DNA of 32,000 nt, from positions 21,590-53,589 of the forward strand of contig CAZIYE010000003.1 in assembly GCA_964543385.1 (NCBI GenBank), given 5' to 3'. This DNA is from an uncultured Candidatus Saccharibacteria bacterium. GTDB taxonomy: Bacteria; Patescibacteriota; UBA1384; XYA2-FULL-43-10; 1-14-0-10-43-13. Shown piece after piece: positions 1 to 29,391 of the stretch. A program made the position numbers and the translations under genes. Positions within the stretch are counted from its first letter, which is position 1, and each line of letters begins with the position of its first letter. Below the pieces are notes generated by a model that saw only the letters and a list, made by a program, of their open reading frames with translations, did not search any database and was not told the DNA's origin.

Positions 1-524
1 TCCCAATATTTTCTCGAATAAGTCATGCCATAATTTTCAAGCTGGCGTTTTCTGTAAATCCAGGCCAGACCTTCAGAGAAATCTGTTGCCTTTTCGAACT
101 CTGATTGACCGTTTTCGGTAACCAATGATTCACCTGTTTCGGTGCAAAATCCATAAGTTTGTTCAACTTTGCCAAACCCACCGTTCTTAGTTTGTTGAAA
201 ACGAACAATGCCATCATCAGAAAAATTGGAAAATCTCTTTTTCTGCCCGGCAAATGTTTCCACCGGCTGACCATCCTTATCAATGATCTTTGAGATCATA
301 CCATCGGGAATTGCAGTCATACCAAGATGAAATCGGTATTGCCTTGGATCATCGTCGGCCGATGTAAGCTTTCTCAAAATCACCGTGCCATCAGTTCTTA
401 AAAATGTAATTTTTCCTAATCTATTTACGGCTGCAACTCCTTCAGAAAACCGATCGGCCTTACCTGGATCAATTACTAGGATACGACCATCAGTCATATC
501 GGGATCTTTAATGAAATTCCCTTC
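1..524 (-). pseudogene. WG-repeat body of an array paralog, cut off from its N-terminal module by an in-frame TAG; runs off the left window edge
   Basis: The minus-strand frame of ORF 525..791 stays open for all 174 codons from 524 to the window edge (checked codon by codon). The translation EGNFIKDPDMTDGRILVIDPGKADRFSEGVAAVNRLGKITFLRTDG...FSDDGIVRFQQTKNGGFGKVEQ...ATDFSEGLAWIYRK carries FSEG(V/L)A-type WG-repeat motifs like the intact paralogs. Track ORF 23..283 is in another frame. Confidence 0.6.
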
Positions 525-791
525 CTAATCGACATAAACATCGCAGACTTTTCGCCTTGCTAGCGCACAGCCGTCATAAAAATCACCAACATAGTCTAGT
601 TCAAGCTTTTTCGACAGCCCCTGTCGCAGTTTGAGGTTGTATGGATATATGTTTTCAATCTCGACGATTGTATTCTGAATTTCCGAAATCAAAAACTGCG
701 CCTTGTCGATATTACCAGGCCGAGGATCAAGCAATATATCCTTTTGGCTAGATATTGACTGAATAAATTTTGTGACTTCTTGGCAATTCAT
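525..791 (-). CDS. N-terminal CxxhT-helix module only (88 aa); ends at TAG where paralogs continue into WG repeats
   Basis: MNCQEVTKFIQ... aligns with the N-termini of the other array genes (closest is MNCQEITNKIS of 14424..15677). It ends ...KLELDYVGDFYDGCALARRKVCDVYVD, just as the first WG repeat begins. The stop at 525-527 is TAG. Confidence 0.6.
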   Translation of the reverse strand: MNCQEVTKFIQSISSQKDILLDPRPGNIDKAQFLISEIQNTIVEIENIYPYNLKLRQGLSKKLELDYVGDFYDGCALARRKVCDVYVD

Positions 792-795
792 AGAT

Positions 796-2232
796 CTATT
801 TTACCTCAATTAGCTTGGTTTTGCTTGAGGTTGCCCGATTATTTTCAGCTGGAACAGGTACACGCATCAAAACAACACCGGTAATCTTGCGATCCATTTT
901 CACTCTTTTTTGCGCTTCTTCATAAGTTAAGTTTGGTGCTTCCAGAATCACAACACCGCCATCCATTTGGCTACAGAAATCACCATCAGGAATTGCTCGT
1001 AAGACCATGATGCCATCTTTTAGTCCTTTAGTTGGGTCACCAGAAATATTTGAGAGATCATCGATGACACAGAGGCCACGTTCTTTTTTCTTCCAATTTA
1101 GTAATTCATCTTCACTAGAAATAATTGGCGGATCTTCGTTTTCCAAATAATCGTAATATCCACGATTTTCGTCATAGCCATAAACCGGTTTTGTGAATTT
1201 ATCCTTAGTCTTCTCGGCCGGATCGGTAGTATCCTCCCTGGGCTGATTTATCAGGACTGTATAGTCAGGATCAGCAATGAGACGGGGGTGCATTGAACGT
1301 GTAAATATGATCGCTCCACCAGTTTTATTGTATGGTAAATGATAATAATAATCACCGATTATAAAAATCGCTCTGCCCGAACCGTTGGCCATATCTCCGC
1401 CAGTGCTTCCGGCCGTAAAGACTCCGCCGGAAGCACACCAACCAAATTTCTCACCGGCTCCTCTTGTATAGATACGGCCTCCTCGCATCAACATGCCAGT
1501 AACTTCGCCAATACTGTCAGCGTGGATCTCACCCCCCGACATTTGCATTGCCGTCATATTACCAATATTTTCTGCTTGAATTTGTCCTCCAGACATATAT
1601 TTTGCGCAAAAATTCCCTATGGATTCAGCCCTAAAAATACCCTTGCCCATATTGAGACCTGTATAATCGCACTTGTTTCGCCCCGAGTAACTGCTTTTCA
1701 CTTCTACATCTGAATTTGATTTGATCAAAGTATTTATAACCGCCGCTTTTATTGCGTCGATCAGCTCGTCTGTTTTGCTTTTTCGATCCTTCTCATCTTC
1801 AATATTTTCAAATAGCTTCCTCAATAAAACCTTATATTCGGAGTCATCTGCCGGATTTCCCAGCTTGTCATAAAACTGATGGATTTCTGATTTGCTGGCT
1901 TTTATCGGTAGCGGGGTAAATAATGCTTGAACCAAAGCATAGTAGGCGGAATTGTCAGTATCAGTTATCTGTTCTTTTATTTGTGGCATCTTCAAAAGCT
2001 CAATCAAGGTTCTGCCGAATTGAGGATCATTTATCCTGTCCTCGACAGCAGAAAGAGAGAAGTTTTCTCGGATAAATTCTTTGACAATGCCCTCTAAATA
2101 TTCTTTGTCTTGAAATAAATCCTTGATCTGACCCTTGCCAGGCACAGCCGTCTCCAAATCACGACAAAATTTATCGCCAGTCCTGGCAATATTTGTCATA
2201 TCTAAAGTAATTGCCTCACAAAATGAATTCAC
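796..2232 (-). CDS. Array paralog: N-terminal CxxhT module + helical region + GXGXG-type beta-helix repeats
   Basis: GTG start with GGAGGG Shine-Dalgarno 5 nt upstream. N-terminus is MNSFCEAIT. About 18-aa repeats follow: MSGGQIQAENIGNMTAMQ / MSGGEIHADSIGEVTGML / MRGGRIYTRGAGEKFGWC / ASGGVFTAGSTGG, as in the GXGXG domain of the glutamate synthase C-terminus and FwdC. The C-terminal ~75 aa are about 80% identical by eye to the next gene. Confidence 0.85.
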   Translation of the reverse strand: MNSFCEAITLDMTNIARTGDKFCRDLETAVPGKGQIKDLFQDKEYLEGIVKEFIRENFSLSAVEDRINDPQFGRTLIELLKMPQIKEQITDTDNSAYYALVQALFTPLPIKASKSEIHQFYDKLGNPADDSEYKVLLRKLFENIEDEKDRKSKTDELIDAIKAAVINTLIKSNSDVEVKSSYSGRNKCDYTGLNMGKGIFRAESIGNFCAKYMSGGQIQAENIGNMTAMQMSGGEIHADSIGEVTGMLMRGGRIYTRGAGEKFGWCASGGVFTAGSTGGDMANGSGRAIFIIGDYYYHLPYNKTGGAIIFTRSMHPRLIADPDYTVLINQPREDTTDPAEKTKDKFTKPVYGYDENRGYYDYLENEDPPIISSEDELLNWKKKERGLCVIDDLSNISGDPTKGLKDGIMVLRAIPDGDFCSQMDGGVVILEAPNLTYEEAQKRVKMDRKITGVVLMRVPVPAENNRATSSKTKLIEVK

Positions 2233-2257
2233 ACTGTCCCTCCGTATATTTGTATCT

Positions 2258-3673
2258 TTATTTTACCTCAATAAGTTTTGTTTTGCCGTCTATTTCCCCG
2301 TCTGTAATTCTCATAAGAACCACTCCTGTAATTTTTCGATCCATCTTAACAATTTCTTGCGCTTTTTTATAGGTCAGGAATGGCACTTCCAAAATCACAA
2401 CGCCGCCCTCCATTTGAGCGCAGATCTCGCCGTCAGGGATAGCTCGCAAGACCATTATCCCATCTTTGAGTCCTGCTGTCGGATCCCCAGAAATGTTTAA
2501 AAGCTCATCGATGAGGCAGAGACCGATTTTCTTTTCCTTCCACTCTGCCAGTTCCTGATCGTTTTTGGGAGAAAATATCTCATTGCCATGCAGGTGTTCA
2601 ATGTATTGCCCTTTTTCATCGTCATAACCGAAGATTTCCCCCTTCGTTTTTAACTCTTTTATCTGTTCCTTGCCAGAAATATTGAGACGGTTCACCAGTG
2701 CTGTGTACTTAATATCTGGCTCCAAGATATTGGCCACAGTAGTTTCGTTTGCAATAAAAACGCCCGATCTTTTCATCATCGGCAAGTCAAAAGCATGTCC
2801 AATGATAAAAATTGAATCGCTCGAGGAATTTCCTGCCGGATGATTAGCATAATCAGCAAAAAACACTCCGCCGCCGGCTATCCAGCCAAATTTTTCTCCG
2901 ACTGATCTAGCATAAATACGACCACCGTCCATCATCATGCCGGCACCATCGCCAATATTTTCACAATGAATTTCGCCGTCTTTCATAAATTGGGCGGCCA
3001 TATTTCCCACAGATTCTGCCTCGATCCGGCCACCCTTCATCGCATAGCCACAATGATCGCCGATGCTTGGCATTTTGATCAATCCTCTGGTCATATTAAA
3101 GCCAATGTAATCGCTCTTTTTTGTAGTTGATCCCTTATCTCCAATCTCAAGACGACCCTGGCTTTCCAGTACTCGATGGATTAGGGCAGTTTTCAAAGAA
3201 TCAATCAACTTCTTGATCTTGCTCTCATCACTCTTCCCCTCAACCTCGGGATATGCCAAAGCGACTACCTCCCGCAGCTTTTCATCCCATCTCATTCTCT
3301 TATAAAAATCATCCAATTCGTCAGCACTGTCGCTCTGAAGTAAGATTGGATATCTGGCAAAGACAAATTTGACCAAACTGTAAAGATTGACTTCATCTTT
3401 CTCAATATTTCGGATCACTTCTTCCTCCTTGAGCAGTTCGCCAAAGAGCCGCCAGTTGTCCGGATTTTCGATTCTCTCCAGATAGCCATTGACTGAAAAC
3501 TTATTTTTCATATATTCCGCCAAGTGCTCTTGAAAGAATTTTTGCATTTCCATGAGCTCAGCGACCTTGCCCTCGCCGGGCTTGGCAGCTCGTAAATCAT
3601 CACAAAAATACTGACCGGCTTCTGCGATCGTAAGTAAATCATTTGTCAGTTCTTCACACAAAGAATCAAACAC
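2258..3673 (-). CDS. Array paralog: N-terminal CxxhT module + GXGXG-type beta-helix repeats (tandem paralog of 796..2232)
   Basis: GTG start with GGAGGG SD. N-terminus is MFDSLCEELT. Repeats are MKGGRIEAESVGNMAAQF / MKDGEIHCENIGDGAGMM / MDGGRIYARSVGEKFGWI / AGGGVFFADY. It has the same C-terminal end, KTKLIEVK, as 796..2232. Confidence 0.85.
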   Translation of the reverse strand: MFDSLCEELTNDLLTIAEAGQYFCDDLRAAKPGEGKVAELMEMQKFFQEHLAEYMKNKFSVNGYLERIENPDNWRLFGELLKEEEVIRNIEKDEVNLYSLVKFVFARYPILLQSDSADELDDFYKRMRWDEKLREVVALAYPEVEGKSDESKIKKLIDSLKTALIHRVLESQGRLEIGDKGSTTKKSDYIGFNMTRGLIKMPSIGDHCGYAMKGGRIEAESVGNMAAQFMKDGEIHCENIGDGAGMMMDGGRIYARSVGEKFGWIAGGGVFFADYANHPAGNSSSDSIFIIGHAFDLPMMKRSGVFIANETTVANILEPDIKYTALVNRLNISGKEQIKELKTKGEIFGYDDEKGQYIEHLHGNEIFSPKNDQELAEWKEKKIGLCLIDELLNISGDPTAGLKDGIMVLRAIPDGEICAQMEGGVVILEVPFLTYKKAQEIVKMDRKITGVVLMRITDGEIDGKTKLIEVK

Positions 3674-3689
3674 TCACCCTCCAAAATAT

Positions 3690-5048
3690 TTATGAGAAAA
3701 CCCGTCTGCCTTTTTTATCGATATAGAACATATTATTATGGCCGTCGCTTAGAATTTTTCCGACCAAGGCAACACCGTCTTTAAACGGCTGTGCTGTTGT
3801 TATTCTCTCGTCAGATTCAATAATGCTTCCGTCTAATGTGATCAACTCCTGCTCACGTACGGTTGTTTGCAGTGCTCTCCCGTCTGATGTCGTGAAATTA
3901 AATTGTTCGCTAGGGCCACTAACAAATCCTAAACCTTCAGAAAAATCATGTATCACAAATCGCTCTCCTTCTCTCTCCAAGAGTATTTTTCCTGTAATGT
4001 CGACTAGGTGGTAGGAGCATATCTGTGGAGGCCCATTACTAATAGTCTTCTCAAAAAGTAGTAAGCCATCCTTTATTTTGCTATGAATAGGATTTATTTT
4101 TCCAAGAGACTCCGTCTGAAATTCACGAATAATTTTCCCATGAATATCAATAAGAAGGGTTTTCCCGTCCGCTGTTTGCACAAAAGCACGATCTTGGTAA
4201 AAATCAGTGGCACTCTCGAATCCTTGACCAAGTACACCTTCATTAAGATTTTCGCCTTTTTGATTTATAAAGTACCAAGAATTATTCGATCTATTTTTTC
4301 CAAATCGATCGCAAACTTTAGCAATACCGGTGTTTAGGTCACCCATACCATCTTCGAAGAATTTACTCGGATCTTTTGGTATCCTTTCCCCACTCGGAGC
4401 AACATGCCAAGCGCCAAAATCCGGCGTATGCAGCCCCAGATACCCAGAACCGCTCCAACGATCATCCATAATTCTCCCTATATCGATCGTCCTAATCTCA
4501 TTTCCTTTGTAATCAATCAGATGATATTTTTGTTTCTCCTCTTGCCCATGATAGCGAACAAGCGCCTGGCCAAATTTATATGAATTAGCTTCTCTATAAT
4601 TTTTATCGTCAATTCTTTTTCCATCAACATCGATATAATAATGTCCTTTTTGACCGCCAGAGGCTTCAATTGAAACCAACGCCAATCCTTCAGAGAAGTC
4701 CGAAATTTTGCATTTCTTGTCATTATCTTCAGAGAAAATGACCTCTCCTTTTTTATTAATCAAAATCTCGGGAGATTCTAGGCCTTCCAGTTTAAAAACG
4801 GCTTTTGCTAGTCCATATTCATTGAACTTTCCGACAAAAGAATAACCTTTTTCTTTGGCGATTCTATCTCGTAGCTCAACTTGGTCGCTGTCTAAAAATT
4901 CTAGAAGCTCTGCAATTTCCGATCTTATCTGTCTTTTTGTTTCCAAAGCAAGATTGAGCGGATTATTTTCGGTGACAACTAAACCAGGCGCGGTTCGAGC
5001 GACTTTTTTTATAAGATTCGTATAGTTTTCACAAGTTGGTGTAAACAT
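3690..5048 (-). CDS. Array paralog: N-terminal CxxhT module + WG-repeat (WG_beta_rep-like) body
   Basis: The track starts at TTG 5051. ATG at 5046-5048 gives MFTPTCENYT, identical to the paralog, and forms an ATGA overlap with the upstream stop. Repeated F-x-(E/D)-G-(L/V)-A ... Y-(I/F)-(D/N)-x-x-G motifs are present (FSEGLALV, FKDGVALV, YYIDVDGKRI, FYIDKKGRRVFS). Confidence 0.85.
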   Translation of the reverse strand: MFTPTCENYTNLIKKVARTAPGLVVTENNPLNLALETKRQIRSEIAELLEFLDSDQVELRDRIAKEKGYSFVGKFNEYGLAKAVFKLEGLESPEILINKKGEVIFSEDNDKKCKISDFSEGLALVSIEASGGQKGHYYIDVDGKRIDDKNYREANSYKFGQALVRYHGQEEKQKYHLIDYKGNEIRTIDIGRIMDDRWSGSGYLGLHTPDFGAWHVAPSGERIPKDPSKFFEDGMGDLNTGIAKVCDRFGKNRSNNSWYFINQKGENLNEGVLGQGFESATDFYQDRAFVQTADGKTLLIDIHGKIIREFQTESLGKINPIHSKIKDGLLLFEKTISNGPPQICSYHLVDITGKILLEREGERFVIHDFSEGLGFVSGPSEQFNFTTSDGRALQTTVREQELITLDGSIIESDERITTAQPFKDGVALVGKILSDGHNNMFYIDKKGRRVFS

Positions 5049-6370
5049 CAACTAAATACCCTTCTACCTTTTTTATCGATATAGACTGGATGACTAACTC
5101 GAAATCCATTCTTATCTCTTTCTACTGGATCATCATACGTGAATTTGGCTACGCCATTTTTGAAACCTATTTCCAATCGAGTCACAGGCTCTTCAATTTC
5201 TGCGAAATTACCATAGGTATCAACAAGATAATTTTTGCCCTCATGGGCCATGAAACTCAATCCCTCATGAAAAGGAGAGAAAACTTGTTGGTATTCTCCC
5301 TGGATTAGGACATTTCCGTTTAAATCCATGACTGTTCTGCCCTGCGTTGCAAGATTGCCATTTCGGTTGATGAAAGTAATTATCCCTTCGGAATAGGTGT
5401 GGCTTGCCTGTACAACCGAGCCGAGCTCTGACCTGTGACCTACCTCTTTAATTTTATCGCCTTTTGAATTGATAATCAAAATGTGCCCTTGGACGGTTTC
5501 GATAAAGGCCCTGTCATTATAAAAATTTGAAATAGCACGAAAATTCAATGATAATACCCCTTCATCAAGACGTTTACCGTTTTGGTCAATATAATACCAA
5601 GTTTGCCGTTCATGATCCGTAACACGTCCGTCCTGGCCCTTACCCAATCGATCACAGACCTTTGCGATACCGTTGTTTAGGTCGCCAGCACCATCCTCAA
5701 AATATTTGCTGGGGTCACTCGGAATTCTTTCGCCATTCGGCGAAATATACCATATCCCAGAACCGCTCTGGTGAACTTTCAAATATCCAGCGTCAGAACC
5801 TTCGAAATAGGCTGCCTCTGGAAGTTCGAATTCCCTGATTTGATTTCCCAATAAATCAATTATGGCATGGTTTTTCTTATTTGTTTCCCCGCGATATCTA
5901 ACAACTGCTTGGCCAAATTTATATGGGTGAGCTTCTTGATAAACTTTACCATTTAACCGTTGTCCATCTTCTTTGATATAATAGCTACCATTGGTTGATT
6001 CAATAATGGCGATTCCGTCAAAGAATTCTTTTATCAAGAAACTGTCTTGTTCACTTGGTAATATCTTTTCCCCACGCGCATTGATCAATACAGATGCCGC
6101 CTTAAAATTAGTATCTAACCTGGCTATCGCTAACCCATGCTTATTGAACTTATCTACAAATTTATAGCCTTTTTCTTTTGCGATCCGATCCCGTAATTCA
6201 ATCTGATCACCATTCATGAATTCAAGACATTGGGCAAGTTCATTTTGTACTTGCTTTTTTGTTTCTATTGCTGATTTGATTGGATGATTTTCGGTGACAA
6301 CTAAACCAGGCGCGGTTCGAGCGACTTTTTTTATAAGATTTGTATAGTTTTCACAAGTTGGTGTAAACAT
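5048..6370 (-). CDS. Array paralog: N-terminal CxxhT module + WG-repeat body
   Basis: MFTPTCENYTNLIKKVARTAPGLVVTEN is identical to the N-terminus of the downstream gene. WG-type motifs are FFDGIAII, FHEGLSFM, FKNGVAKF and YIDKKGRRVFS. The TGA stop overlaps the next start. Confidence 0.85.
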   Translation of the reverse strand: MFTPTCENYTNLIKKVARTAPGLVVTENHPIKSAIETKKQVQNELAQCLEFMNGDQIELRDRIAKEKGYKFVDKFNKHGLAIARLDTNFKAASVLINARGEKILPSEQDSFLIKEFFDGIAIIESTNGSYYIKEDGQRLNGKVYQEAHPYKFGQAVVRYRGETNKKNHAIIDLLGNQIREFELPEAAYFEGSDAGYLKVHQSGSGIWYISPNGERIPSDPSKYFEDGAGDLNNGIAKVCDRLGKGQDGRVTDHERQTWYYIDQNGKRLDEGVLSLNFRAISNFYNDRAFIETVQGHILIINSKGDKIKEVGHRSELGSVVQASHTYSEGIITFINRNGNLATQGRTVMDLNGNVLIQGEYQQVFSPFHEGLSFMAHEGKNYLVDTYGNFAEIEEPVTRLEIGFKNGVAKFTYDDPVERDKNGFRVSHPVYIDKKGRRVFS

Positions 6371-6375
6371 AATAT

Positions 6376-7260
6376 CTAAACCTCACTTCCATCGAAAAAA
6401 TACCAGGCCTTTTCATGGTAAACGACAACCCCATCTGGATGTGCGCTGAAGGTTATATCCTCAGCGCCAAATTTATCCGTTAAATCAACAAGGACTTTTG
6501 TATTGTTTAAATAAATTTTTCCGTCACGCTTAATCAAAAAGCCCCTTGGATGACCGCGCCAGCTTGCTTTTTCGCCGGAATATAGGGCTTGGCCAGTATG
6601 CAAGCGAATTTCCAGATTATTCCAGTCCGAGTAGCCAAGCAATACACCTCTTTCTGTCACATCCCAATTCGACAATTCCATTGATACATTTGATATATTA
6701 CTTTTCTCAATCGGGATTGGATTATCTCTGTCGCCATTAAGAAGAAATTCATCTGTATTTTTGTTATAAACGACACAATCGTTGCCAAAGACACGAAAAT
6801 CAAATTGACCATTGCGATCACTAGTAAAAACCCTCTTTCGGCTTGCCCTATTAAACAAATAATCGAAGTCCATATGCGCATCAGTACTTTTATAAAAGAG
6901 GCTACTCGCCGAAGAGATAACTTGGTCTCGAGGTGCCTTAGATCCAAGCCCATGCCACTGTCCAAGCGGATCGACATAACGTATGCTATCACTATCAGAG
7001 ATCAATATCCCATCTTTAAAAGACTGCCAACTACTATACCTATTATTAGATCGAGCTATAACTTCGCCATTAGTATATTTTTTCCATTCACGATAATGGC
7101 GTTCAGAAAAATGTATCTCTAATAAATCTTCGAGCTCCTGTTTTATCTCTATCGCTTCCTCGACGATTTTGTTTATCGACAAAACATTTTTCATTTCACT
7201 ATCCGTGTCTTGCAGGCCCCTCAAAACGTTTGTAAATTTTTGGCAGTCATACCCAATCAT
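6376..7260 (-). CDS. Array paralog: N-terminal CxxhT module + unassigned beta-rich body (possibly degenerate WG-like)
   Basis: N-terminus is MIGYDCQKFT. The body has weak FKDGILIS...IRYVDPLGQW and FLIKRDGKIYL motifs and no recognisable catalytic motif. Its start overlaps the upstream stop (ATGA). Confidence 0.75.
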   Translation of the reverse strand: MIGYDCQKFTNVLRGLQDTDSEMKNVLSINKIVEEAIEIKQELEDLLEIHFSERHYREWKKYTNGEVIARSNNRYSSWQSFKDGILISDSDSIRYVDPLGQWHGLGSKAPRDQVISSASSLFYKSTDAHMDFDYLFNRASRKRVFTSDRNGQFDFRVFGNDCVVYNKNTDEFLLNGDRDNPIPIEKSNISNVSMELSNWDVTERGVLLGYSDWNNLEIRLHTGQALYSGEKASWRGHPRGFLIKRDGKIYLNNTKVLVDLTDKFGAEDITFSAHPDGVVVYHEKAWYFFDGSEV

Positions 7261-8537
7261 GCGAATACCTTCCTGCCATTCTTATCAATGTAATATGTTG
7301 GCTGGCTCCATTGATCTTGGACTTTAGCCACGCCGTCGATGAATGGTCTGGCGTCAGCAAAATGCTTTGTACCAAAGGTACCATTTCCTGGGAAAAGCGC
7401 TTTGCCAACCTTGTTTATGTAAATACGGCCGCCATCTGTGTTGTCCTCGTTTACCCCTATATCTTCGGGTAAAACAACGCTTGCCCCTTCGTGAAAATCA
7501 TCCACCGAAATATAATTCGAAACACTAAAAGCTTCTCTCTCGTCGGTATCAATAAAAATATTCCTTGTAATATCGTTCTCATATTGATCTAGAGAATCTT
7601 CTCGGACAAGTGCCAAACCGTCACTAAAATCGTTCGCATCCGAATAAACTTCTCCTTCAGTGGAAAAGCTGCCAGTATCAGCGTTATATTTCAAGAAATA
7701 ATGTCCTGTTTCAGAAATTTGATATCGAGCCATACCATCACGGAGCGGATGAATGTCTGTTACGGCCAATAAATTCAAGTCTGTTATGTTACCTTCTATA
7801 TCAACAGCAAACCAATCATTTGAAAAATCGCAATAAAAAGCGTAGTTTTCACTAAATTGAGTAAACTTTTCAACATTTTCAAGCACTAATTTTTCCTTGC
7901 CTGTTTCGTCGATAATTCTGTATTTATTATCTTCTTTTCTTGTCCAGGATCGCCCACAAGCAAAATCTGTCGCTAATTCATATTTATCATTCCATTCAGA
8001 ACCATCAGGATTAAGAAAAGTATATGTTTTACTGCCGCCGGGAGCAAAATTCCACACCAGTCTAGGAACGCTTTCACTGACGGAAACATAGTTTTTGGAT
8101 ATTTTTTCACCTTTCTGATCGACCAAAAAATAGCGATAGGTTCTCTCGGAAGTCATTTCGTCATCGCTAATATCATATTCACCAACAACACAAGTGCCTT
8201 TTTGAAATTTACCAAATGATGCAATTTGCTGGCCAATATAATCCTTGATCACCTCGCCTGAAGCCGAAACAAGGATATAGTCTTCGCCAGGTTTTCGACC
8301 AAAAGCTAATCCTTCGCTAAAATTTCCTAGCCAGGCAAGACCAAGATTTTTTGCAATTTTATCTCTTACGGTAATTTGATCAGGGTCGATTCTTTCTAGA
8401 AGGTGCTCGACTTCAGAATTAATTTCCTTGTATTTTCTCCATGCCTCAGCAATATTGCCTTCAGTAAAAATACCTTTGTATTCGGTAAAAAGGATCTTTA
8501 GCTGTCGTACCCCATTTGTCAGTGCATTACAATTCAT
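7257..8537 (-). CDS. Array paralog: N-terminal CxxhT module + WG-repeat body
   Basis: N-terminus is MNCNALT. The module ends with RDKIAKNLGLAWLGNFSEGLAFG. Other motifs are FSDGLALV, FHEGASVV, FIDGVAKV and YYIDKNGRKVFA. Confidence 0.85.
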   Translation of the reverse strand: MNCNALTNGVRQLKILFTEYKGIFTEGNIAEAWRKYKEINSEVEHLLERIDPDQITVRDKIAKNLGLAWLGNFSEGLAFGRKPGEDYILVSASGEVIKDYIGQQIASFGKFQKGTCVVGEYDISDDEMTSERTYRYFLVDQKGEKISKNYVSVSESVPRLVWNFAPGGSKTYTFLNPDGSEWNDKYELATDFACGRSWTRKEDNKYRIIDETGKEKLVLENVEKFTQFSENYAFYCDFSNDWFAVDIEGNITDLNLLAVTDIHPLRDGMARYQISETGHYFLKYNADTGSFSTEGEVYSDANDFSDGLALVREDSLDQYENDITRNIFIDTDEREAFSVSNYISVDDFHEGASVVLPEDIGVNEDNTDGGRIYINKVGKALFPGNGTFGTKHFADARPFIDGVAKVQDQWSQPTYYIDKNGRKVFA

Positions 8538-8549
8538 ACTGTTTCATAC

Positions 8550-9860: not shown

Positions 9861-9883
9861 ATGATTATTCTACCTCAAGATAT

Positions 9884-12112
9884 TTATTCATGTGCTTTCT
9901 TTGAAGACCTACTCTCAGAGGATTGGCAACCCAGTAAAACTCCAAAATCGGCCTTGCTCTCCTCTTTTTGACCAATTAAATATTCTGTCAATCTTGGCAC
10001 TATATGATTACCATCAAAGAGAAGTTTGCGTTTTTGCAAAGTACAAATTTTCGCCAAATAATACTCGCGAAGAATTTCATCCTTTATTTTTTGGGTAAAG
10101 CTCTCTGCTTGGACAAGATATTTCATCTGATCCTGACCCGATTCGGCAGATTTTTCGGCCATAAACAAACAAAGTCGTGCCTTATTTCGCTCAAGATGAA
10201 GTTCGCCGAGAATTCGCTCGAAGAGTGAGTCGTCATTATCTGTTTTTTGTTGGATTTGTTCGATTAAGTTTTTAGCAACCCTAAACTCTGAATAATAGAG
10301 TTTTTTGGTGCCGTCGCGTTGTTCAAATATTTTATTAACAGAGGCAAATATTTCATTGACCATCTCATCGTTTTGCCAATCAAGTGCCAACTCTAATAAT
10401 TTTTGGTAGTGCTCGTATCCAGGATAGCTGACACCAGAGCTATACGAATGCGGATTGTCCTCAACATAATTGGCACTATCAGCAGCTAACTGAAAATATT
10501 GCAGAGCCGTTGCTTCTTCTTTTGATTGCATTTTTAGTTTTGCCAGAAATGTGTAAAAATCAATTCTTAGGTTGTTGTAATATCCACAATGATCTTGAAA
10601 TGTTGCCACTGACTTGTCAAAATCTCCCTCTTTGCCAGCGTAATATTTGGCAATTTCCATCCATGACTGTAGAAAGTGGCGATCGCCCCTCAGATGATAG
10701 TCTCCATAAGAAACGTCATACTCATAATCTTTGACAGTATCAAGAGTTTTGGTTGCCTCCTCTGGATTTCCCTGCCGCAGATAAGATTTGACGATCGACA
10801 AATTGATCTCTACTCTTCTGAATTTGTCATGGTCTTTTTGAGGGAACCAGCGTAATGCGCTTTGTATATCATCTATATCTGCATATGCCCTAGATATCGC
10901 AGTCATGGCATCGTCAGTGTTGTCTGACCAGCGTTTGTAATGGGGATAATACAAGAGCGCCGTATCGATATCGCCATCCCTGAGACAACTTTCCATCACA
11001 TTATATGAGAAACGACCGATACGGTCCCCAACCGTTAATTTTGGAATGGAGCCTTCGTTTTTTGTTGCTTGACATACTATTTTGATATTTGTCTCTTTGT
11101 CTGTTTTGGAATAATACCGATAACGTACCCAGGCAAGGCTAATAATCAAGTCATTACTTACTTCTCTACTTTGCACTATTTGCCATGCTAGCTCATAATA
11201 TCGATCGGCTTCAGCATCGTCACCGGCCTCTTTGTAGTATTTGATTGCTTCTAAATAACAGCTATATTTCGCGCTTATATCCTCGACTCGTTCAATCAGA
11301 CTCAGCGCGCTATCTGTATCCTTGTTTTTAAATAGCTCACTAATTTTGTTTTTAATTAATTGATCCTTTTCCCCTAGCACACTTATAATTTTCTTTTGTG
11401 TTTCAACAAACTTGTCGATCTGCCCTAGCTCATAATATTTTTCAGCCATTGTTTTGTAGATATCATCCCGATCGTTGGGGAAGGTTGACTGTCCCATAGT
11501 CTCCAGAAGCTCTTCGGTTTTGACAAAATTGCCTCTTTTTGCGTAAGCTACCGCCAGTTTTTTTCGCAAATCAAAGAGATGGCGATGATCAGTCAACTGG
11601 CCTATAAATTGTTCCGCTTGCTCAACTTCACCTGCTTCGGCTAAAGCATCCGCAATATTAGATTGCCAATGTTCAAGGTTAAATGACCCGCTCGCATTGG
11701 CAGACAAGAGATTACCCAGAGTAATAGCACGGTCGAATTCTTTTGCCTTGACCAATGCTCTACATGCATGGTAACCATACATCGATTTATCTCTCGATTC
11801 AGAGTTTAAAACATCGGCAATCCCATAGAAATCACCAAGCAAGGCCTGGAGTTCTGCCAATGCTTCAAGCGGTCTGGCGAATTCAGTGTCTGATTCATTA
11901 GTCGATGCCAGTATGCCAGGATATGCGGTAACTCTTTTTGCAAATTGTTTAAAAGCGGCCGCTTCGCTTAACAAGAGCTTAATGAGCTCCTCTTCTTCGG
12001 TTTTTAGATATTCTTTTAATTCAAAAAGGCGGAGAGATCCCATCTCTGGTTTAAATTCTCGGGTAGATTCAGCCAGTTTTATTATATAAGAAGTTATTTG
12101 TTCGCATTGCAT
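9884..12112 (-). CDS. Array paralog: N-terminal CxxhT module + long TPR-like alpha-solenoid (742 aa)
   Basis: N-terminus is MQCEQIT. The body is all-helical with recurring A-x-x-Y-(Y/F)-x-x-A patterns (AIKYYKEAGDDAEADRYYELA, ALQYFQLAADSA, IAKYYAGKEG). Confidence 0.8.
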   Translation of the reverse strand: MQCEQITSYIIKLAESTREFKPEMGSLRLFELKEYLKTEEEELIKLLLSEAAAFKQFAKRVTAYPGILASTNESDTEFARPLEALAELQALLGDFYGIADVLNSESRDKSMYGYHACRALVKAKEFDRAITLGNLLSANASGSFNLEHWQSNIADALAEAGEVEQAEQFIGQLTDHRHLFDLRKKLAVAYAKRGNFVKTEELLETMGQSTFPNDRDDIYKTMAEKYYELGQIDKFVETQKKIISVLGEKDQLIKNKISELFKNKDTDSALSLIERVEDISAKYSCYLEAIKYYKEAGDDAEADRYYELAWQIVQSREVSNDLIISLAWVRYRYYSKTDKETNIKIVCQATKNEGSIPKLTVGDRIGRFSYNVMESCLRDGDIDTALLYYPHYKRWSDNTDDAMTAISRAYADIDDIQSALRWFPQKDHDKFRRVEINLSIVKSYLRQGNPEEATKTLDTVKDYEYDVSYGDYHLRGDRHFLQSWMEIAKYYAGKEGDFDKSVATFQDHCGYYNNLRIDFYTFLAKLKMQSKEEATALQYFQLAADSANYVEDNPHSYSSGVSYPGYEHYQKLLELALDWQNDEMVNEIFASVNKIFEQRDGTKKLYYSEFRVAKNLIEQIQQKTDNDDSLFERILGELHLERNKARLCLFMAEKSAESGQDQMKYLVQAESFTQKIKDEILREYYLAKICTLQKRKLLFDGNHIVPRLTEYLIGQKEESKADFGVLLGCQSSESRSSKKAHE

Positions 12113-12116
12113 AAAT

Positions 12117-13277
12117 TTATTTTACCTTTTTCTTTGCCGTATTGCGAAAGATTAATATCCTGCCATCAACTAAGCCAAAAATGATTTTATGGTCGATACC
12201 GATATCAAAAGATTTTATTTTCACGTGATCAATTTCTGATGAAAAATCGATCGAGCCAACTTTTTCCATGGATTTCAGATTAAAAATATCGATCAGCCCA
12301 CCGAAAGCAAGAGCAAAGACGTACTCCTTTTTCGGATCGACCGCAATTTTTTCATACGGATTTGCTTCTCCATTTTCAAGTTTGATTATTGATCGAACTT
12401 CGTAGGAGGAAATATATTCCCCATCCTGCTTGTTTGGTTTTTGAATTTCCAGCCCTTTTCCCGAGAGAACGATATAGTTCGTGTTTTCTAGTGGTTTGAA
12501 ATCTATAACGCCCATCGATTGGTATAGACACTCTTTTTTCTCATGATTCCAGACAGTAAGCTGTCTAGACGTATCCAGAGAATATATAATTTCCTGATTG
12601 GCTGAAAATTCGATATCTTTAAATCGGCGAATTTCGATAAATGACGGCTTTTTAAATCGTTCGCCTTTTTTAAAACCTGCTCCGATGCTGCAGATGGTCC
12701 CGTCATTATCAGAGGCGCCAACCGCAATGTCTGTGCCCACAGCGAAAATATCAGGCAATGTTTGAGGATCAGCCGCATCGTAAGACGACCCTTGCTGACC
12801 AGCTTTTCTATACAGGATTTTTGCCATGCCTTTTCGCTCAGTCCTGATGAAAATAGTGCCCTCTGGATCGATAGCAAAATAAGTAGGGATTCGCTCTTTT
12901 CTAATACTCGCATCCGCTAGAGTTTCTGCCTCATTCTTTAAGTTTATGATATCCACTGTTTGATCATCTTCGACAGTGTCGTCTAGCCGGCGAATTGCAT
13001 ACAACATCTCACCATCCGGCGAGACTTTGACCGGCCAAAAACCTTGATGAAATTTTTCTGCAGTACTTTCACTTTCATAGCCGCCTCTATCAAAAAATTT
13101 TGCAAATTTTCGCCATCGAAAAAATTCTGATTTTTCTTTGACATATCTATTTATAACTCGTATTTGCACTTTTGCTCTGTCGTATTGTTTGCCATCCACA
13201 AAAAAATTATAAGTTCTAAGCTCATTTCTGAGTTGATAGATCAACACTGTTAAGTTTTTACAATTTTCTGTTTCCAT
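12117..13277 (-). CDS. Array paralog: N-terminal CxxhT module + WD40-like beta-propeller (tentative)
   Basis: N-terminus is METENCKNLT. The body shows WD-like strand signatures (QLTVWNHEKKE, GGLIDIFNLKSMEKV, VDGRILIFRN, DGTICSIGAG). The fold call comes from motif resemblance only. Confidence 0.7.
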   Translation of the reverse strand: METENCKNLTVLIYQLRNELRTYNFFVDGKQYDRAKVQIRVINRYVKEKSEFFRWRKFAKFFDRGGYESESTAEKFHQGFWPVKVSPDGEMLYAIRRLDDTVEDDQTVDIINLKNEAETLADASIRKERIPTYFAIDPEGTIFIRTERKGMAKILYRKAGQQGSSYDAADPQTLPDIFAVGTDIAVGASDNDGTICSIGAGFKKGERFKKPSFIEIRRFKDIEFSANQEIIYSLDTSRQLTVWNHEKKECLYQSMGVIDFKPLENTNYIVLSGKGLEIQKPNKQDGEYISSYEVRSIIKLENGEANPYEKIAVDPKKEYVFALAFGGLIDIFNLKSMEKVGSIDFSSEIDHVKIKSFDIGIDHKIIFGLVDGRILIFRNTAKKKVK

Positions 13278-13278
13278 T

Positions 13279-14427
13279 CTAGTACTCGATAATTATGCGT
13301 CCCTTTTTATCCATTTTATATTTCTTGCCTTCAATAACTATTGTTAGCAATCCGCTGCTGCTAAAGCGACCTTTTATTTCTGTATCTGGAGGAAGATTGA
13401 ATTTTTGACGGAAATCAACGCCAACTTCATCGACTAGTTTTACAATTCTTCTTTTTGCATCCTTTTCGACTTGTTCCCAATATAAACAATAACCTTCATT
13501 AAATTCTGGAGTTGTAAATTCGTCTTTGTAAAACTCGTAAGTCTTTATAGTCTTGCCGCTCTTATCTATTTTCTGCCAGAGTCCATCTACAAAGACAATC
13601 GTTGTCCCGTTTTCAAAATGACCAGTCTTTTTATATGGACCCAAAACCTTCTGGAAATTGTGATCGTAGAAGCAATATTCACCGTTTTTTTCTGGAAATG
13701 GCAGCAATCCCTCGGTAAAATAGCTTTCCTTATAACTCCGGCCGACAGTGAATTCGAGCCCCGTCTCAACTATCTGACCATCTTTGTTTATGAAATGCCA
13801 CTCGCCGTTATCCTCCTTTGTGCAGGCCAATCCTTCACTAAATGAGCTGGCATCTTCGAAGCCACCGTTAAAAAGCCCATCATTCTTGAGTTGCCCATCG
13901 ATGTCACTAAAATACCAACGATTCCCTATTTGGGCGCAGCCGGTTCCATCAAGAAAAGGCTTTAGAAATTTCACTCGGGCATTTTTACCAGCAATAATTT
14001 TCCCATCATGTCGCAAGTATTGGGCTGATTGAGTTTTTGTTTTTTCGTCATACAGTTCAGTCACTATAACACCATCAAGAGACCACTTTCCGATACCGAC
14101 AATATCAATGTTAGTCCCCGCAACCCGCTGACCTTTTCGATCTATTAAGATAGGTAAATCGTTTTCATCATACGCAATCGCTGTACCCATTATATTAAAT
14201 GGCCTAACATCTCCAAAATTTTTAGACTTCATAAGAGTGGCCAGAAATAATATATCGCGATCGTACGCATCAACAACCAAAAACTCACTGACACATAACT
14301 TTCTAATTTCGATTTTGTATTGATTTTTCTCGGCTGCTGCTTGAGCGTCATCAAACTGTCCGATTAGTTTACCAGCCATATTAGCCGTCTCAGTGTATTG
14401 ATCACAACTTGGAGTATTTATTTTCAT
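13279..14427 (-). CDS. Array paralog: N-terminal CxxhT module + WG-repeat body
   Basis: N-terminus is MKINTPSCDQYT. Motifs are FSEGLACTKEDNGEWHFINKDGQIV, FTEGLLPFPEKNGEYCFYD, FENGTTIVFVDGLWQKIDKSGK and FNEGYCLY. There is an ATGA overlap with the upstream gene. Confidence 0.85.
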   Translation of the reverse strand: MKINTPSCDQYTETANMAGKLIGQFDDAQAAAEKNQYKIEIRKLCVSEFLVVDAYDRDILFLATLMKSKNFGDVRPFNIMGTAIAYDENDLPILIDRKGQRVAGTNIDIVGIGKWSLDGVIVTELYDEKTKTQSAQYLRHDGKIIAGKNARVKFLKPFLDGTGCAQIGNRWYFSDIDGQLKNDGLFNGGFEDASSFSEGLACTKEDNGEWHFINKDGQIVETGLEFTVGRSYKESYFTEGLLPFPEKNGEYCFYDHNFQKVLGPYKKTGHFENGTTIVFVDGLWQKIDKSGKTIKTYEFYKDEFTTPEFNEGYCLYWEQVEKDAKRRIVKLVDEVGVDFRQKFNLPPDTEIKGRFSSSGLLTIVIEGKKYKMDKKGRIIIEY

Positions 14428-15677
14428 TTTTTAAATACCTTCTTGCCCTTGTGGTCGATATAAAATTCTTTACCGTCTTTCATAACCCAAGCAACACCAT
14501 GTTCGAAACTGTTGGCTTGTTCAAATGGACCAAAAATCTTACTTCCCTCATGATCTATAAAGAAGGTTTTCTCTTTCTGGCAAATAATTGCAAAACCATC
14601 AGCAAAAGTTTGAACTGAATCGTACGTTTCGCCCTCTTTTGGCAAAACTTTTTCACCAATTTCGTTAATAAAGTAATATGGATCGCCAGGCTTTTCACAA
14701 ATGACCGCTAATCCCTCGGAAAAAATACTGTGGGCGTGGAGTCTATCAACTTGGAAAAGCCATTTATTATGGATCGGCTCCACCAGTGAAGTTTTTGTTC
14801 CTTCCTGATACCAGAAACGCCCAGCGCCGGCATTTTGGATTGTATATTGGTCGCTGCTATCGCCCACAAATCTACCTTCTCGGTCAAAAAACTGCGGACG
14901 GCAATCATGTCTTATGGTTAGGGAGATGCCATCCCTAAAGGAGAAACATTGGCTTGCGGGAATTCTTTCTCCGATCGGGTTCATTGTCTCATCGACCAAC
15001 TGTGCAATCGTTTCACTGTCGTCAACACTTCGAACCCATGCTATACCCTCGGAAAAAGGTGTCCGAGGAATAATATTTTCAATTTTTGTGCCGTCTCTAC
15101 GAATAAATGATCTGGCTGCATCTTCTGGTATTCCAGCATCGGAATCGTATACACAGAGTATTTTTTCATCTTTCGAGCCATCTATGTCGCCAAATGGTCC
15201 GGCAATCTTTTCACCGTTTTTATCGATGAGATAAAATTTGCTTTCGACAGCGGCTAATCCGGCGAAACCGCTGTCATCAATCTCGTCATCGCCTAACTCG
15301 GCCACATCTTCAAAATATTCCTCGATCACCGCCGAGCCATCGACAAAGCGATGTGCATGCCTGACTTCACTGCCAAATGTTTTGACGATTTCAGCATGAT
15401 CATTTACCAAAAACTTGGTTTCTTCTTTCTTACCCCAAGCAAGCCCTTCGTGATATTCAGAAACAAACTCAAAGCCATGTTTTTCAGCCACTAGCTTGCG
15501 AAAATTTATCTGCGCTTCATACTTATCGATAACTGGTAAGACTTCTAACAAGGTAGAATTTATCTCCTGCTTGATATTAAGAAAACTGGACAATTCCTTT
15601 TTCTCTTCGATAAGATCGATCGACTTTTTACTGACTATTAGTGACGATATTTTGTTTGTAATTTCTTGACAATTCAT
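14424..15677 (-). CDS. Array paralog: N-terminal CxxhT module + WG-repeat body
   Basis: N-terminus is MNCQEIT, with a GGAG SD 5 nt upstream. Motifs are YHEGLAWG, FSEGIAWV, FSEGLAVI, FADGFAII, FEHGVAWV and FYIDHKGKKVFKK. Confidence 0.85.
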   Translation of the reverse strand: MNCQEITNKISSLIVSKKSIDLIEEKKELSSFLNIKQEINSTLLEVLPVIDKYEAQINFRKLVAEKHGFEFVSEYHEGLAWGKKEETKFLVNDHAEIVKTFGSEVRHAHRFVDGSAVIEEYFEDVAELGDDEIDDSGFAGLAAVESKFYLIDKNGEKIAGPFGDIDGSKDEKILCVYDSDAGIPEDAARSFIRRDGTKIENIIPRTPFSEGIAWVRSVDDSETIAQLVDETMNPIGERIPASQCFSFRDGISLTIRHDCRPQFFDREGRFVGDSSDQYTIQNAGAGRFWYQEGTKTSLVEPIHNKWLFQVDRLHAHSIFSEGLAVICEKPGDPYYFINEIGEKVLPKEGETYDSVQTFADGFAIICQKEKTFFIDHEGSKIFGPFEQANSFEHGVAWVMKDGKEFYIDHKGKKVFKK

Positions 15678-17173
15678 CGTATCTCCATAAATTCAGCTCT
15701 TCTTTTCTTGCCGACTGTTATTTTTCCGATTTTGACTGGCTCAGTCCACTTCTTTAGATACAAAACAACCCCATGACGATCGGAAATAGGAGCAACACTT
15801 TTACAAGCCTCCTCATATGAGATTTTAGGATCATCGATTACGATTGTCCCACCCGTCATCCCGCGCCCGATAGTTTGGCAATTGCCGGCATTCTTGATCC
15901 AGACAATTCCATTTTCGAGGAAAGAAAAATTGGCTTCGGTAAAATTTTCGGGGATGGTCAGCATCAGTAGTCCAGAATCAGTCCGCAAACTATTGATATA
16001 TGGACTGCTTTCAAAATATTTCTCCTCACGAATTTGTGGGGCGCTACAAAATACTAACTCGTCTTTTTCTTCGTCATAAGACATAATCGCCCCAACTGGA
16101 CGCTGGCCCTGTTCTGGTTTATTAATTATTTGATCCCTTTTGCATTTTATTAAGACTGTTCCACCTAATCCACCAACAATGTAACGAGCATCACCTTGAA
16201 CCTTGCCAAAAATAAATGTTCCTCCACTGGAAAATGAGCAAAACTCCGCACCAGTTAGATGCCCGACGTTTTCAAGAGTTGGTCTAAGATCGAAATCCTT
16301 TACGAATATTGTTCCACCCGTCGCACTTGCAGCGATGTTAGCGTTTTCAGCCCTCTCGACCACAATTGTTCCACCGTGAATCTTGTAGCCAATATTTCCT
16401 TCCGCTTTTTTAATATGGATGCTACCACCGGTCATCGATTTGCCTAATTCTGAATTATGCTCACTCCCAATGGTTGACTTAAGTTCTCCAATCTCGACAT
16501 CACCATCTTCCATTTCTTCAAAGGCACTGCCACTAAGTTCATCAATTGCAAGGGTTCCTTTTCGCCAATAGAATCCTTTGAAATTACGTCCGAAATGTTC
16601 TTTCAATTCCCTAGGAAGATCTTTTGATTTTACATCAAAGGCATACCTATGATCAGGCTGGTATGCTTGTAAAAAAGCTGAGTTTAAGTTGCTTCGAAAC
16701 CACTCTACAAACTCCGGGGAATTGGGCGTGATTCTGCTCACATTCCGCCGAATAAAACCTTCGACACTTTTCAGGAATCGACGATATTGAAATTGATAAA
16801 GCTGACAGCCGTTATTGTTTAATTTCAAAGATGACGGCAGTTTATTTTGCAAAAAATCCAAGGCGTGAGGATCGGCTTCAAGCGCATCAAAAAACTGCGA
16901 GTCAAGCGGTAAAATCATATCTTGAAACTGGACAAATTCAAGGTTAATTTTGCCTTTTACAGAATGCAAACCAGCGAGATCTTTTTTTTCACAAAGAAAA
17001 GCAAACGGCATCTCTGCCATCTGTATGTCAATAACTACTTTTGTTAGCTCCTTACAATTCAAAAACCCTCCCGAACTTATGCCTAGATTATACCTAAATT
17101 TCAGAGAGTTTAGAACAGCTGCATCCCAGCATATTTCGTTAGAACCGTTTTCCCAATAAACAACCTGTTTCAT
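15674..17173 (-). CDS. First array gene: GXGXG-type beta-helix protein. The true start is probably TTG at 17062, giving (M)NCKELT
   Basis: Repeats are MTGGSIHIKKAEGNIGYK / IHGGTIVVERAENANIAAS / ATGGTIFVKD ... SSGGTFIFGKVQGD ... MTGGTIVIDD. With ATG 17173 the ORF overlaps the ABC ATPase by 35 nt and the CxxhT motif sits at residue 40. The TTG at 17060-17062 is preceded by GGGAGGG (17066-17072) and restores the M-N-C-x-E-h-T N-terminus shared by the paralogs. Confidence 0.8.
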   Translation of the reverse strand: MKQVVYWENGSNEICWDAAVLNSLKFRYNLGISSGGFLNCKELTKVVIDIQMAEMPFAFLCEKKDLAGLHSVKGKINLEFVQFQDMILPLDSQFFDALEADPHALDFLQNKLPSSLKLNNNGCQLYQFQYRRFLKSVEGFIRRNVSRITPNSPEFVEWFRSNLNSAFLQAYQPDHRYAFDVKSKDLPRELKEHFGRNFKGFYWRKGTLAIDELSGSAFEEMEDGDVEIGELKSTIGSEHNSELGKSMTGGSIHIKKAEGNIGYKIHGGTIVVERAENANIAASATGGTIFVKDFDLRPTLENVGHLTGAEFCSFSSGGTFIFGKVQGDARYIVGGLGGTVLIKCKRDQIINKPEQGQRPVGAIMSYDEEKDELVFCSAPQIREEKYFESSPYINSLRTDSGLLMLTIPENFTEANFSFLENGIVWIKNAGNCQTIGRGMTGGTIVIDDPKISYEEACKSVAPISDRHGVVLYLKKWTEPVKIGKITVGKKRRAEFMEIR

Positions 17174-18896: not shown

Positions 18897-19117
18897 CTCT
18901 TTTGAATTAACAATCCATCTCTTAAATCAACCAAGCCAACAGAAAATAAGAAATCCAACCCATAAATAAACTTATCAAACGAATTTATTTCGGGTACCCT
19001 TCTGGATTTTTCCCAAAGCCTTGTGACAGTGGTTGAATCTTGCATAAATGTCAAAATTCTTGCGCTAATACCCATTATTGAATTATTGAATGATATATTT
19101 TTATCTGGAAAAATCAT
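18893..19117 (-). CDS. Small (74 aa) helical middle component of the ABC-3C-type module
   Basis: Its size and position fit: it abuts the HNH gene stop and overlaps the ATPase start by 4 nt. The sequence is helical and has no enzymatic motif. The assignment rests on gene order in the described ABC-3C architecture. Confidence 0.55.
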   Translation of the reverse strand: MIFPDKNISFNNSIMGISARILTFMQDSTTVTRLWEKSRRVPEINSFDKFIYGLDFLFSVGLVDLRDGLLIQKR

Positions 19118-24671: not shown

Positions 24672-24678
24672 CAGCCGA

Positions 24679-25029: not shown

Positions 25030-25174
25030 TTGTTATTTAATTGTTTGCCTTTGTCTACCTAAAGATGAACGAAGGGTAAGCAATTAAACTTTGGAGGAAA
25101 TATTTGTATGAAGTTGTGTGAACTAAGTTCAATATATGTAGCAATTGCTTGCTTGTCAAGAGGCAGTGACAAAT

Positions 25175-29366: not shown

Positions 29367-29391
29367 TCCTTAGTATATTATTAAAAGTAAT

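Follow-up and report, generated by a model that had tools for sequence, protein, structure and literature searches.

A stretch of 32,000 nucleotides from the contig CAZIYE010000003.1 (positions 21,590 to 53,589 of the forward strand; NCBI GenBank assembly GCA_964543385.1, an uncultured Candidatus Saccharibacteria bacterium), referred to below as the window, has its left part filled by thirteen consecutive genes, G1 to G13, whose products share a short N-terminal module marked by a cysteine close to the initiator methionine. These proteins belong to a rare family with a two-part architecture, encoded in tandem arrays and independent of the ABC-3C defence genes and of the type IV secretion system (T4SS) beside which the array happens to lie. 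The family is undescribed, as its module could be placed in no known family by either sequence or fold, and it is so far confined, within the databases searched, to Berkelbacteria-like bacteria of the Candidate Phyla Radiation (CPR). Regarding its function, we tentatively propose that the module may be a docking handle that offers alternative binding bodies to one partner, a reading that we hold to be possible rather than probable.

A Tandem Array with a Common Start

The thirteen genes are arranged back to back on the minus strand, from position 17062 to the left edge of the window, and occupy about 17 kb. Their intergenic spacing goes from -4 to +25 nt, with stop and start codons overlapping at many junctions, and the array is one tightly packed, partly overlapping operon. 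The pattern C-x-x-[VILFY]-T, which the initial annotation had read at all thirteen starts, is confirmed: it occurs in 13/13 array proteins, once per protein, starting at residue 3, 5, 6 or 8, and in the first 13 residues of 0/13 of the window's other proteins. The expectation based on composition is about 1.3e-3 per protein, and 5000 composition-preserving shuffles placed the motif in at most two of the thirteen proteins, compared with all thirteen observed. The codons of the motif vary (TGT or TGC for Cys; ACA, ACT or ACG for Thr), and therefore selection acts on the protein and not on a DNA or RNA element. A cause at the DNA or RNA level for the conserved 5' ends is ruled out by these variable codons together with an Rfam scan, in which no family matched the conserved 5' ends.

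The existence of thirteen genes stands, but the limits first assigned to them need three revisions. G1 is not an 88-amino acid (aa) gene at 525-791: beyond the in-frame TAG at 525-527, the WG-like body resumes in the same frame for 174 more codons, up to the window edge. G1 is a pseudogene, a sequencing or assembly error, or a case of read-through; because its body runs to the window edge, the array extends past it. G4 begins with the ATG at 5048, which overlaps the stop codon of G5 in the sequence TGATG. At the other end, the open reading frame (ORF) of G13 is indeed open up to an ATG at 17173, a start that would add 37 residues. The more plausible start is the TTG at 17062, which has a GGGAGGG Shine-Dalgarno sequence 4 nt upstream and from which the family profile aligns (residue 44 of the ORF).

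The N-Terminal Module

AlphaFold2 (AF2) was run on G8 with 14 relatives as input and, separately, on the module alone. The model of G8 (pLDDT 86, pTM 0.81) has helices at residues 3-26, 29-50 and 55-65, that is, of 24, 22 and 11 residues, followed by an all-beta body, and the three N-terminal helices (pLDDT 77-92) were reproduced when the module was modeled by itself. The module is thus predicted to be a helical hairpin of about 65 residues with a short third helix, a generic fold, and these models bear out the earlier proposal of a common helical unit at the head of unrelated bodies.

The residue statistics, computed on 64 family members anchored on the cysteine, define a more specific signature. 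The cysteine is invariant (64/64) and is the sole conserved cysteine of the module. It is directly preceded by N, D, S or T, residues typical of a helix N-cap, in 51 of the 64 members, and followed by E, Q or K at +1/+2, by L or I at +3, and at +4 by Thr in 55 members and Ser in six. Hydrophobic residues at +3, +7, +10, +13/14, +17 and +21 form an a/d stripe, with F-D frequent at +17/+18. The cysteine itself is the first residue of helix 1 and falls in the hydrophobic a/d register, with the threonine one turn further on. A cysteine at the N-terminus of a helix, beside a hydroxyl group, tends to be a reactive thiolate, and on these grounds of general protein chemistry the same is expected of the cysteine of the module.

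Bodies Attached to the Module

Each array protein is soluble and made of two parts, the N-terminal module and a binding scaffold. Pfam, NCBIfam and local clustering assign seven WG bodies (G1, G4, G5, G7, G8, G11 and G12), three GXGXG/FwdC-like bodies (G2, G3 and G13), one TPR body and one WD40-like body, with one left unassigned, so that the tally first proposed holds, with several assignments below threshold. Among the WG bodies, only those of G7, G8 and G12 exceed the gathering cut-off of WG_beta_rep (PF14903; 25.6 bits), and G4, G5 and G11, sub-threshold in Pfam, are clustered with these three by BLAST; the GXGXG/FwdC-like bodies are all below threshold. The body of G8 was modeled as beta-propeller-like, resembling sortilin Vps10p and eIF2A (TM-score ~0.5) and, by sequence profile, WD40 repeats.

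Full-length scans with Pfam and NCBIfam found no catalytic domain in the thirteen proteins, and none of them has a hydrophobic segment, the maximum Kyte-Doolittle value over 19 residues being at most 1.3, compared with 3.2 for the VirB6-like protein used as control. The absence of catalytic domains, signal peptides and transmembrane segments, reported in the initial annotation, was thereby borne out. A lipoprotein, Sec or Tat signal is ruled out, as the cysteine follows Met1 by 2-7 residues without a hydrophobic stretch. The proteins are acidic, with several free cysteines.

Search for a Known Domain

The search for a described relative of the module returned no profile or fold match, in agreement with the first impression that it is neither an LXG/WXG nor an effector-associated domain (EAD). 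At E<=10, Pfam gave scattered, single and unrelated matches for 22 N-modules, and Pfam, NCBIfam and PADLOC scans of the full-length proteins found matches in the bodies only. A sequence profile search of the PDB with the module returned coiled-coil noise (E>=0.045), and Foldseek gave a best E of 1.4 against the PDB, for the M-domain hairpins of ClpL/ClpC and for McsA, and of 0.16 against BFVD.

Several specific candidates were also rejected. Substrates of type VII secretion systems (T7SS) of the LXG/WXG100 kind have no Pfam match in the N-modules or in the full-length proteins; moreover, no T7SS machinery (EssC/FtsK-type ATPase) was found in the window or at eight other array loci, and the bodies consist of repeats only. 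EADs and bacterial Death-like adaptors were excluded by the lack of a Pfam match and of any enzymatic or NTPase body among the 64 members. The F-box was rejected for want of a Pfam match, for the lengths of the helices, and for the lack of an F-box structure among the Foldseek matches, and the anti-sigma zf-HC2 domain (H-x3-C-x2-C) because it has no Pfam match and the module conserves a single cysteine. An anchor of phage receptor-binding proteins was set aside, given that BFVD offered no fold match and that the ATPase associated with some arrays (see below) is without a homologue in phage and plasmid collections; as a counterpoint, one related array lies on a contig classed as viral by IMG/VR.

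Distribution and Evolution of the Family

With a profile of the 13 modules and a threshold of E<=1e-3, a filter-only HMMER search through 1.84 billion representative proteins retrieved 19. Ten of these come from the window itself; the other nine are foreign, and all nine are WG-type and begin in the same way. Names are on record for two of the foreign proteins, NCBI entries from the Candidatus Berkelbacteria metagenome-assembled genome (MAG) GCA_026397135.1, which are labeled "WG repeat-containing protein" and "hypothetical protein"; G8 itself lies on an NCBI contig of 53.6 kb. A metagenome scan found only three marginal loci, and more divergent members were collected by a local hidden Markov model (HMM) scan of fetched flanking DNA (<=10 kb). 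The 64 members obtained in total have about 18 body classes (18 WG, 14 GXGXG, six WD40-like, six of a class of ~235 aa, and many singletons), and an enzymatic body was found in 0/64. The homologues occur in arrays in other genomes too, as had been suspected, with up to at least 18 tandem members (Table 1).

The identity of helix 1 is about 20% irrespective of genome or body class, and for this reason the family is regarded as old and fast-evolving. The description of the bodies as interchangeable or swapped was overstated: the paralogues are old, and no recent domain shuffling was seen among them. The one recent exchange detected concerns G4 and G5, whose first 30 codons (4959-5048 and 6281-6370) are 97% identical in nucleotides (93% identical codons), with identity of 36-69% further on, a pattern that points to a short (~90-nt) gene-conversion tract over helix 1. 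Beyond this tract, no strong concerted evolution of the handles was detected. Mobile-element genes may contribute to the rearrangement of arrays: at L037, a small ORF for a GIY-YIG nuclease (6377-6664) lies within the run of 16 genes, and L032 has its Y1 transposase.

The members of ~235 aa at L030 form two clusters of three (82-2431 and 17304-19462) with N-C-E-N-L-T starts; all six end in a similar short body, which contains a conserved "...TTGK..." segment and has no family match. A similar short body is encoded 3' of a WG gene at L025 (2291-2641).

Table 1. Coordinates and properties of the array genes, of their neighbors in the window, and of the other loci with family members
Feature	Location	Strand	Description
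G1	1..791	-	WG-type; MNCQEVT; N-module, first ~65 codons; family HMM independent E-value (i-E) 2e-21
G2	796..2232	-	GXGXG/FwdC-like beta-helix; GTG start; MNSFCEAIT; body cluster shared with G3 and G13
G3	2258..3673	-	GXGXG/FwdC-like beta-helix; GTG start; MFDSLCEELT; TIGR03122 FwdC E 2e-6, sub-threshold
G4	3690..5048	-	WG beta-propeller type; MFTPTCENYT; ATG overlaps G5 stop (TGATG)
G5	5048..6370	-	WG beta-propeller type; MFTPTCENYT
G6	6376..7260	-	294 aa; MIGYDCQKFT; singleton body, unassigned; family HMM i-E 3e-16
G7	7257..8537	-	WG beta-propeller type; MNCNALT; WG_beta_rep 35.4 bits (cut-off 25.6)
G8	8550..9860	-	WG beta-propeller type; MNCEGIT; N-module ~9666-9860; WG 60.2 bits; reference for modeling
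G9	9884..12112	-	742 aa, TPR-type; MQCEQITS; TPR_19, TPR_14, PPR at or above cut-offs; HMM i-E 3e-11
G10	12117..13277	-	WD40-like beta-propeller; METENCKNLT; weak beta-propeller matches; groups with WD40-like members of L029 and L037
G11	13279..14427	-	WG type, MKINTPSCDQYT; sub-threshold, assigned by BLAST clustering
G12	14424..15677	-	WG type; MNCQEIT; WG 49.6 bits; counterpart in L042 36% identical
G13	15674..17062	-	GXGXG/FwdC-like beta-helix; probable TTG start, (M)NCKELT; 32% identical L042 counterpart starts MTCKELT
DUF2326 ABC ATPase	17139-18896	-	PADLOC PDC-M68B E 1e-176
MC6, 74 aa	18893-19117	-	Pfam MC6 E 1e-15; overlaps both neighbors; fills 221-bp "gap"
HNH-CTD10	19118-19858	-	Pfam E 2e-8; PDC-M68A 2e-63
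Conjugative T4SS module	19896-28996		M23 peptidase, VirB4-like ATPase, unassigned 205-aa protein, PrgI, VirB6-like, pilin
VirB2/TrbC-like pilin	24679-25029		
Coupling protein, 1230 aa		+	C-terminal Replic_Relax domain, an unusual fusion
Two tandem DUF3768 paralogues	29043-29747	-	
Large serine recombinase, 513 aa	30438-31979	+	Right edge of the window
L029/L039	Contig JAPLVL010000060, Berkelbacteria MAG		At least 18 tandem members
L032	Another contig of GCA_026397135.1		5 members; IS200-type Y1 transposase directly after array
L037	971-kb JGI contig		At least 16 tandem members
L028			Array of 5 members beside enolase
L042	6-kb contig		6 members
L030			Scattered singles and triplets
AAA_5 + HExxH/vWA gene set	L039 14409-21062; L040 1960-4968 and 6645-9671		

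Genes Recurring Beside the Arrays

The sole recurrent neighbors of the arrays are genes for an AAA_5 ATPase and for a protein, or protein pair, with HExxH and vWA features, found in two divergent lineages, and we regard them as a lead and not as a result. The array of the Berkelbacteria MAG terminates at genes for a 773-aa protein with the HExxH motif HEFAH, a 367-aa vWA-like protein with the motifs LLIDNSGSM, GGTDD and ISDG, which resemble a metal ion-dependent adhesion site (MIDAS), and a 1059-aa AAA_5 ATPase. The second case comes from the 57.6-kb IMG/VR contig IMGVR_UViG_3300021600_000632 (L040/L041), where at least 13 genes with N-C-P-Q-L-K/R starts form a variant array; these proteins keep the cysteine and the heptad, replace the threonine by lysine or arginine, have WG bodies in some cases, and constitute a sister family. 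Embedded among them, with short gaps or overlaps, are genes for a 1002-aa AAA_5 ATPase and for a 1008-aa fused HExxH-vWA protein.

The two gene sets are homologous (35% identity over 791 aa, E 1e-150; 32%, E 1e-86; 35%, E 6e-57), with HExxH and vWA parts split into 773 and 367 aa in the MAG and fused in the IMG/VR contig, and their common vWA part has the motifs DxSGSM, GGT(D/Q)D and ISDG. The AAA_5 assignment is a single Pfam match to part of the profile, of 33 bits in L039 and 32.7 bits in L040 against a cut-off of 22. No relatives of these genes were found in the PDB or in phage or plasmid collections, and the family HMM matched none of the neighboring AAA_5/HExxH proteins (L039 genes, L040 ORFs) at E<=1. 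Upstream at L040/L041 are an unassigned 748-aa protein and a 151-aa ORF that is amidase-like by eye only; the contig is possibly of CPR phage or prophage origin.

The Neighborhood of the Array in the Window

Upstream of the array, on the same strand, positions 17139-19858 contain a complete three-gene ABC-3C system (Lamassu-like; PADLOC candidate PDC-M68), which is self-contained without the array. The PADLOC models of PDC-M68 cover the A and B components only. At 23 homologous ABC-3C loci (L002-L024) from many phyla of bacteria and archaea, the ATPase has the same upstream gene, a spacer of ~220 bp, matching the size of this MC gene, and varied downstream genes, with C-x-x-h-T arrays (h, hydrophobic) at none of them. 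Conversely, neither T4SS nor ABC-3C accompanies the arrays elsewhere, which adjoin genes such as enolase, an NTP-transferase gene and UvrD/CysRS, and at L042 it is more members of the family, and not ABC-3C, that lie ahead of the genes corresponding to G13 and G12. The position of the array beside ABC-3C and the T4SS is therefore coincidental, and the functional link to both suggested in the initial annotation fails on three counts: the ABC-3C system has an MC6 of its own, its 23 homologous loci are free of arrays, and arrays occur elsewhere without either system.

The conjugative T4SS module follows, and its VirB6-like protein carries a T4SS-pilin domain. The GC content climbs from ~0.37 to ~0.45 at about 20 kb. 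Taken together, the T4SS, the DUF3768 genes and the serine recombinase suggest an integrative conjugative element.

Proposed Function and Alternatives

In the reading that we favor, the thirteen genes are tandem paralogues whose module would act as a common docking handle, through which a single partner would be offered a whole set of different binding bodies; the cysteine would be the key contact, for instance as a ligand to a metal site of the partner. The general proposal is a tentative one, and it is the function, the role of the cysteine and the identity of the partner that we infer. The candidate partner would be the machine composed of the ~1000-aa AAA_5 (MoxR/midasin-type) ATPase and the HExxH, vWA/MIDAS protein, although its identification as the specific partner is on present evidence doubtful. 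The boldest form of the proposal, equally speculative, is that the family supplies the clients or adaptors of a new AAA_5/vWA-MIDAS/HExxH machine in CPR bacteria, into which the cysteine at the helix tip would plug. The cysteine could then work like a cysteine switch, as a ligand of either the HExxH zinc or the metal of the MIDAS, and a single ATP-driven device would have at its disposal dozens of different propellers, beta-helices and TPRs for binding targets, as a prokaryotic, cysteine-based analogue of the F-box-like substrate-receptor families or of Rea1 with its propeller clients.

Several points weigh against this proposal. The invariant cysteine lies in a hydrophobic register and could be a mere packing residue, and the module has a generic fold, a helical hairpin, for which the structural searches gave no informative neighbor. 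Regarding the partner, the association of arrays with the AAA_5/HExxH-vWA genes is based on two loci, and it is motifs, read by eye for the MIDAS, that underlie the vWA and peptidase assignments, with no significant profile match (VWA_CoxE E 0.19). Moreover, neither the window nor the DNA fetched for L037, L030, L032, L028 and L042 contains these genes, and most array ends lie beyond the fetched DNA.

Among the alternatives, the module might serve as an export or translocation handle for a non-Sec route, either the adjacent T4SS or another CPR-specific one, with the bodies acting at the cell surface or inside the cell that hosts the episymbiont, a scheme familiar from PE/PPE, LXG or MIX-type effectors. 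CPR bacteria need attachment to a host, a general dependence that fits such a role, as do the conserved helical hairpin on variable C-termini in multigene arrays, the lack of a Sec signal in the array proteins, and the distance of just 2.7 kb between the array and the T4SS module in the window. Yet the fetched DNA (<=10 kb) around L028, L029/L039, L030, L032, L037 and L042 contains no T4SS genes, toxins and enzymes are missing among the bodies, T7SS-type genes and LXG/WXG matches are lacking, the known T4SS signals are C-terminal, and the proteins are acidic with several free cysteines; overall, we consider export unlikely. Equally unlikely, in our estimate, is a plain lineage-specific expansion, in which the N-segment would be an inherited structural cap without a separate function and the arrays would reflect duplication and divergence. 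The old and divergent paralogues, the generic fold, and the slightly greater similarity of N-modules within the same body class would all be consistent with it. However, the module is found ahead of bodies as different as all-alpha TPRs, beta-helices and beta-propellers, which cannot impose one capping requirement, the cysteine is retained in every member even though the rest of the helix is ~20% identical, and the related IMG/VR array keeps the cysteine while the threonine is replaced.

Homotypic assembly seems to us slightly more doubtful than either of these. Here, co-expressed handles would associate, for example in a coiled-coil bundle with a metal-binding or disulfide layer of cysteines, to yield multivalent hetero-oligomers. 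The clean a/d heptad of helix 1, with the cysteine in register at its first turn, the translational coupling of the array genes in one operon, and the coiled-coil hairpins found as weak structural neighbors speak for it; conversely, AF2 models of the isolated module and of the full-length protein show, with good confidence, a closed bundle of the three helices, and the helix-1 identity between paralogues is low for a shared homotypic interface. Lastly, a distance of 76 nt separates the start of the array from the ABC ATPase, which lies upstream in the same orientation, and repeat scaffolds like those of the array serve as sensors in other defense systems, so that the thirteen proteins might be a repertoire of sensors, or third components, for the ABC-3C system. 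This idea is effectively refuted and retains hardly any probability: the system is complete with HNH-CTD10, MC6 and the ABC ATPase, which, together with the 23 array-free loci, rules out the proteins as alternative middle components or sensors; Pfam, NCBIfam and PADLOC detected no MC or CTD match among them; and the G13/G12-like array of L042 continues upstream with family members in place of ABC-3C. Compared with these alternatives, the docking handle remains our preferred, if tentative, reading.

Significance

The family occupies at least 17 kb of the 32-kb window, although CPR genomes are very small, and at L037 at least 16 tandem genes extend over 21.5 kb, roughly 2% of a contig which, at 971 kb, could itself represent a large part of a genome. 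An investment of such size points to something central to the lifestyle of these bacteria, such as the interaction with hosts or phages, or protein quality control. The family is now a defined object: a domain of 65 residues, whose single invariant cysteine is probably reactive, a range of binding scaffolds, and, as a candidate partner, the ATPase/vWA/HExxH proteins. Should the link to this partner be true, bacteria would have a modular recruitment system of a new sort; should it be false, the module is still an undescribed domain that merits a database profile and would improve the annotation of Berkelbacteria genomes.

Comparison with Known Systems

The family itself is new, and its modular logic, a handle followed by variable bodies, is familiar from several systems. 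The ABC-3C (Lamassu-like, PDC-M68) system resembles it only in being adjacent and on the same strand, and differs in being a self-contained set of three genes, with the array absent at 23 homologous loci. The EADs and Death-like adaptors of bacterial conflict systems also combine a short, all-helical N-terminal adaptor with TPR, WD40 or other repeat "sensors" in clusters prone to diversification; unlike them, the present family has no effector-sensor pair sharing the module and occurs in arrays of up to 16-19 paralogues. The PE/PPE and LXG/WXG100 proteins are likewise multigene families with an N-terminal helical hairpin, a short signature, and variable, often repetitive C-termini, whereas the module here is devoid of WXG, LxG and YxxxD motifs, is accompanied by neither T7SS genes nor toxin domains, and belongs to another phylum. 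In the F-box, BTB and SOCS-box receptors, a small N-terminal helical docking module precedes WD40, Kelch-like or other repeats in large tandem families, but the present module matches none of them in sequence or fold, its helices (24 and 22 residues) are much longer, and no ubiquitin-like machinery is encoded nearby.

The closest parallels of the proposed machine are the midasin/Rea1-Ytm1/Rsa4 system and the MoxR-vWA pairs, as the arrays of two lineages contain or adjoin genes for an AAA_5-type ATPase and a putative vWA/MIDAS domain; the candidate partner differs in adding an HExxH motif, and its gene set is absent from the window. The clients of Rea1 (midasin), Ytm1 and Rsa4, are beta-propeller proteins held via a small N-terminal handle, and the architecture of handle plus propeller is the same in both cases, with the difference that the handle is a ubiquitin-like domain with an acidic MIDAS ligand in the Rea1 clients and a three-helix module with an invariant cysteine in the family described here.

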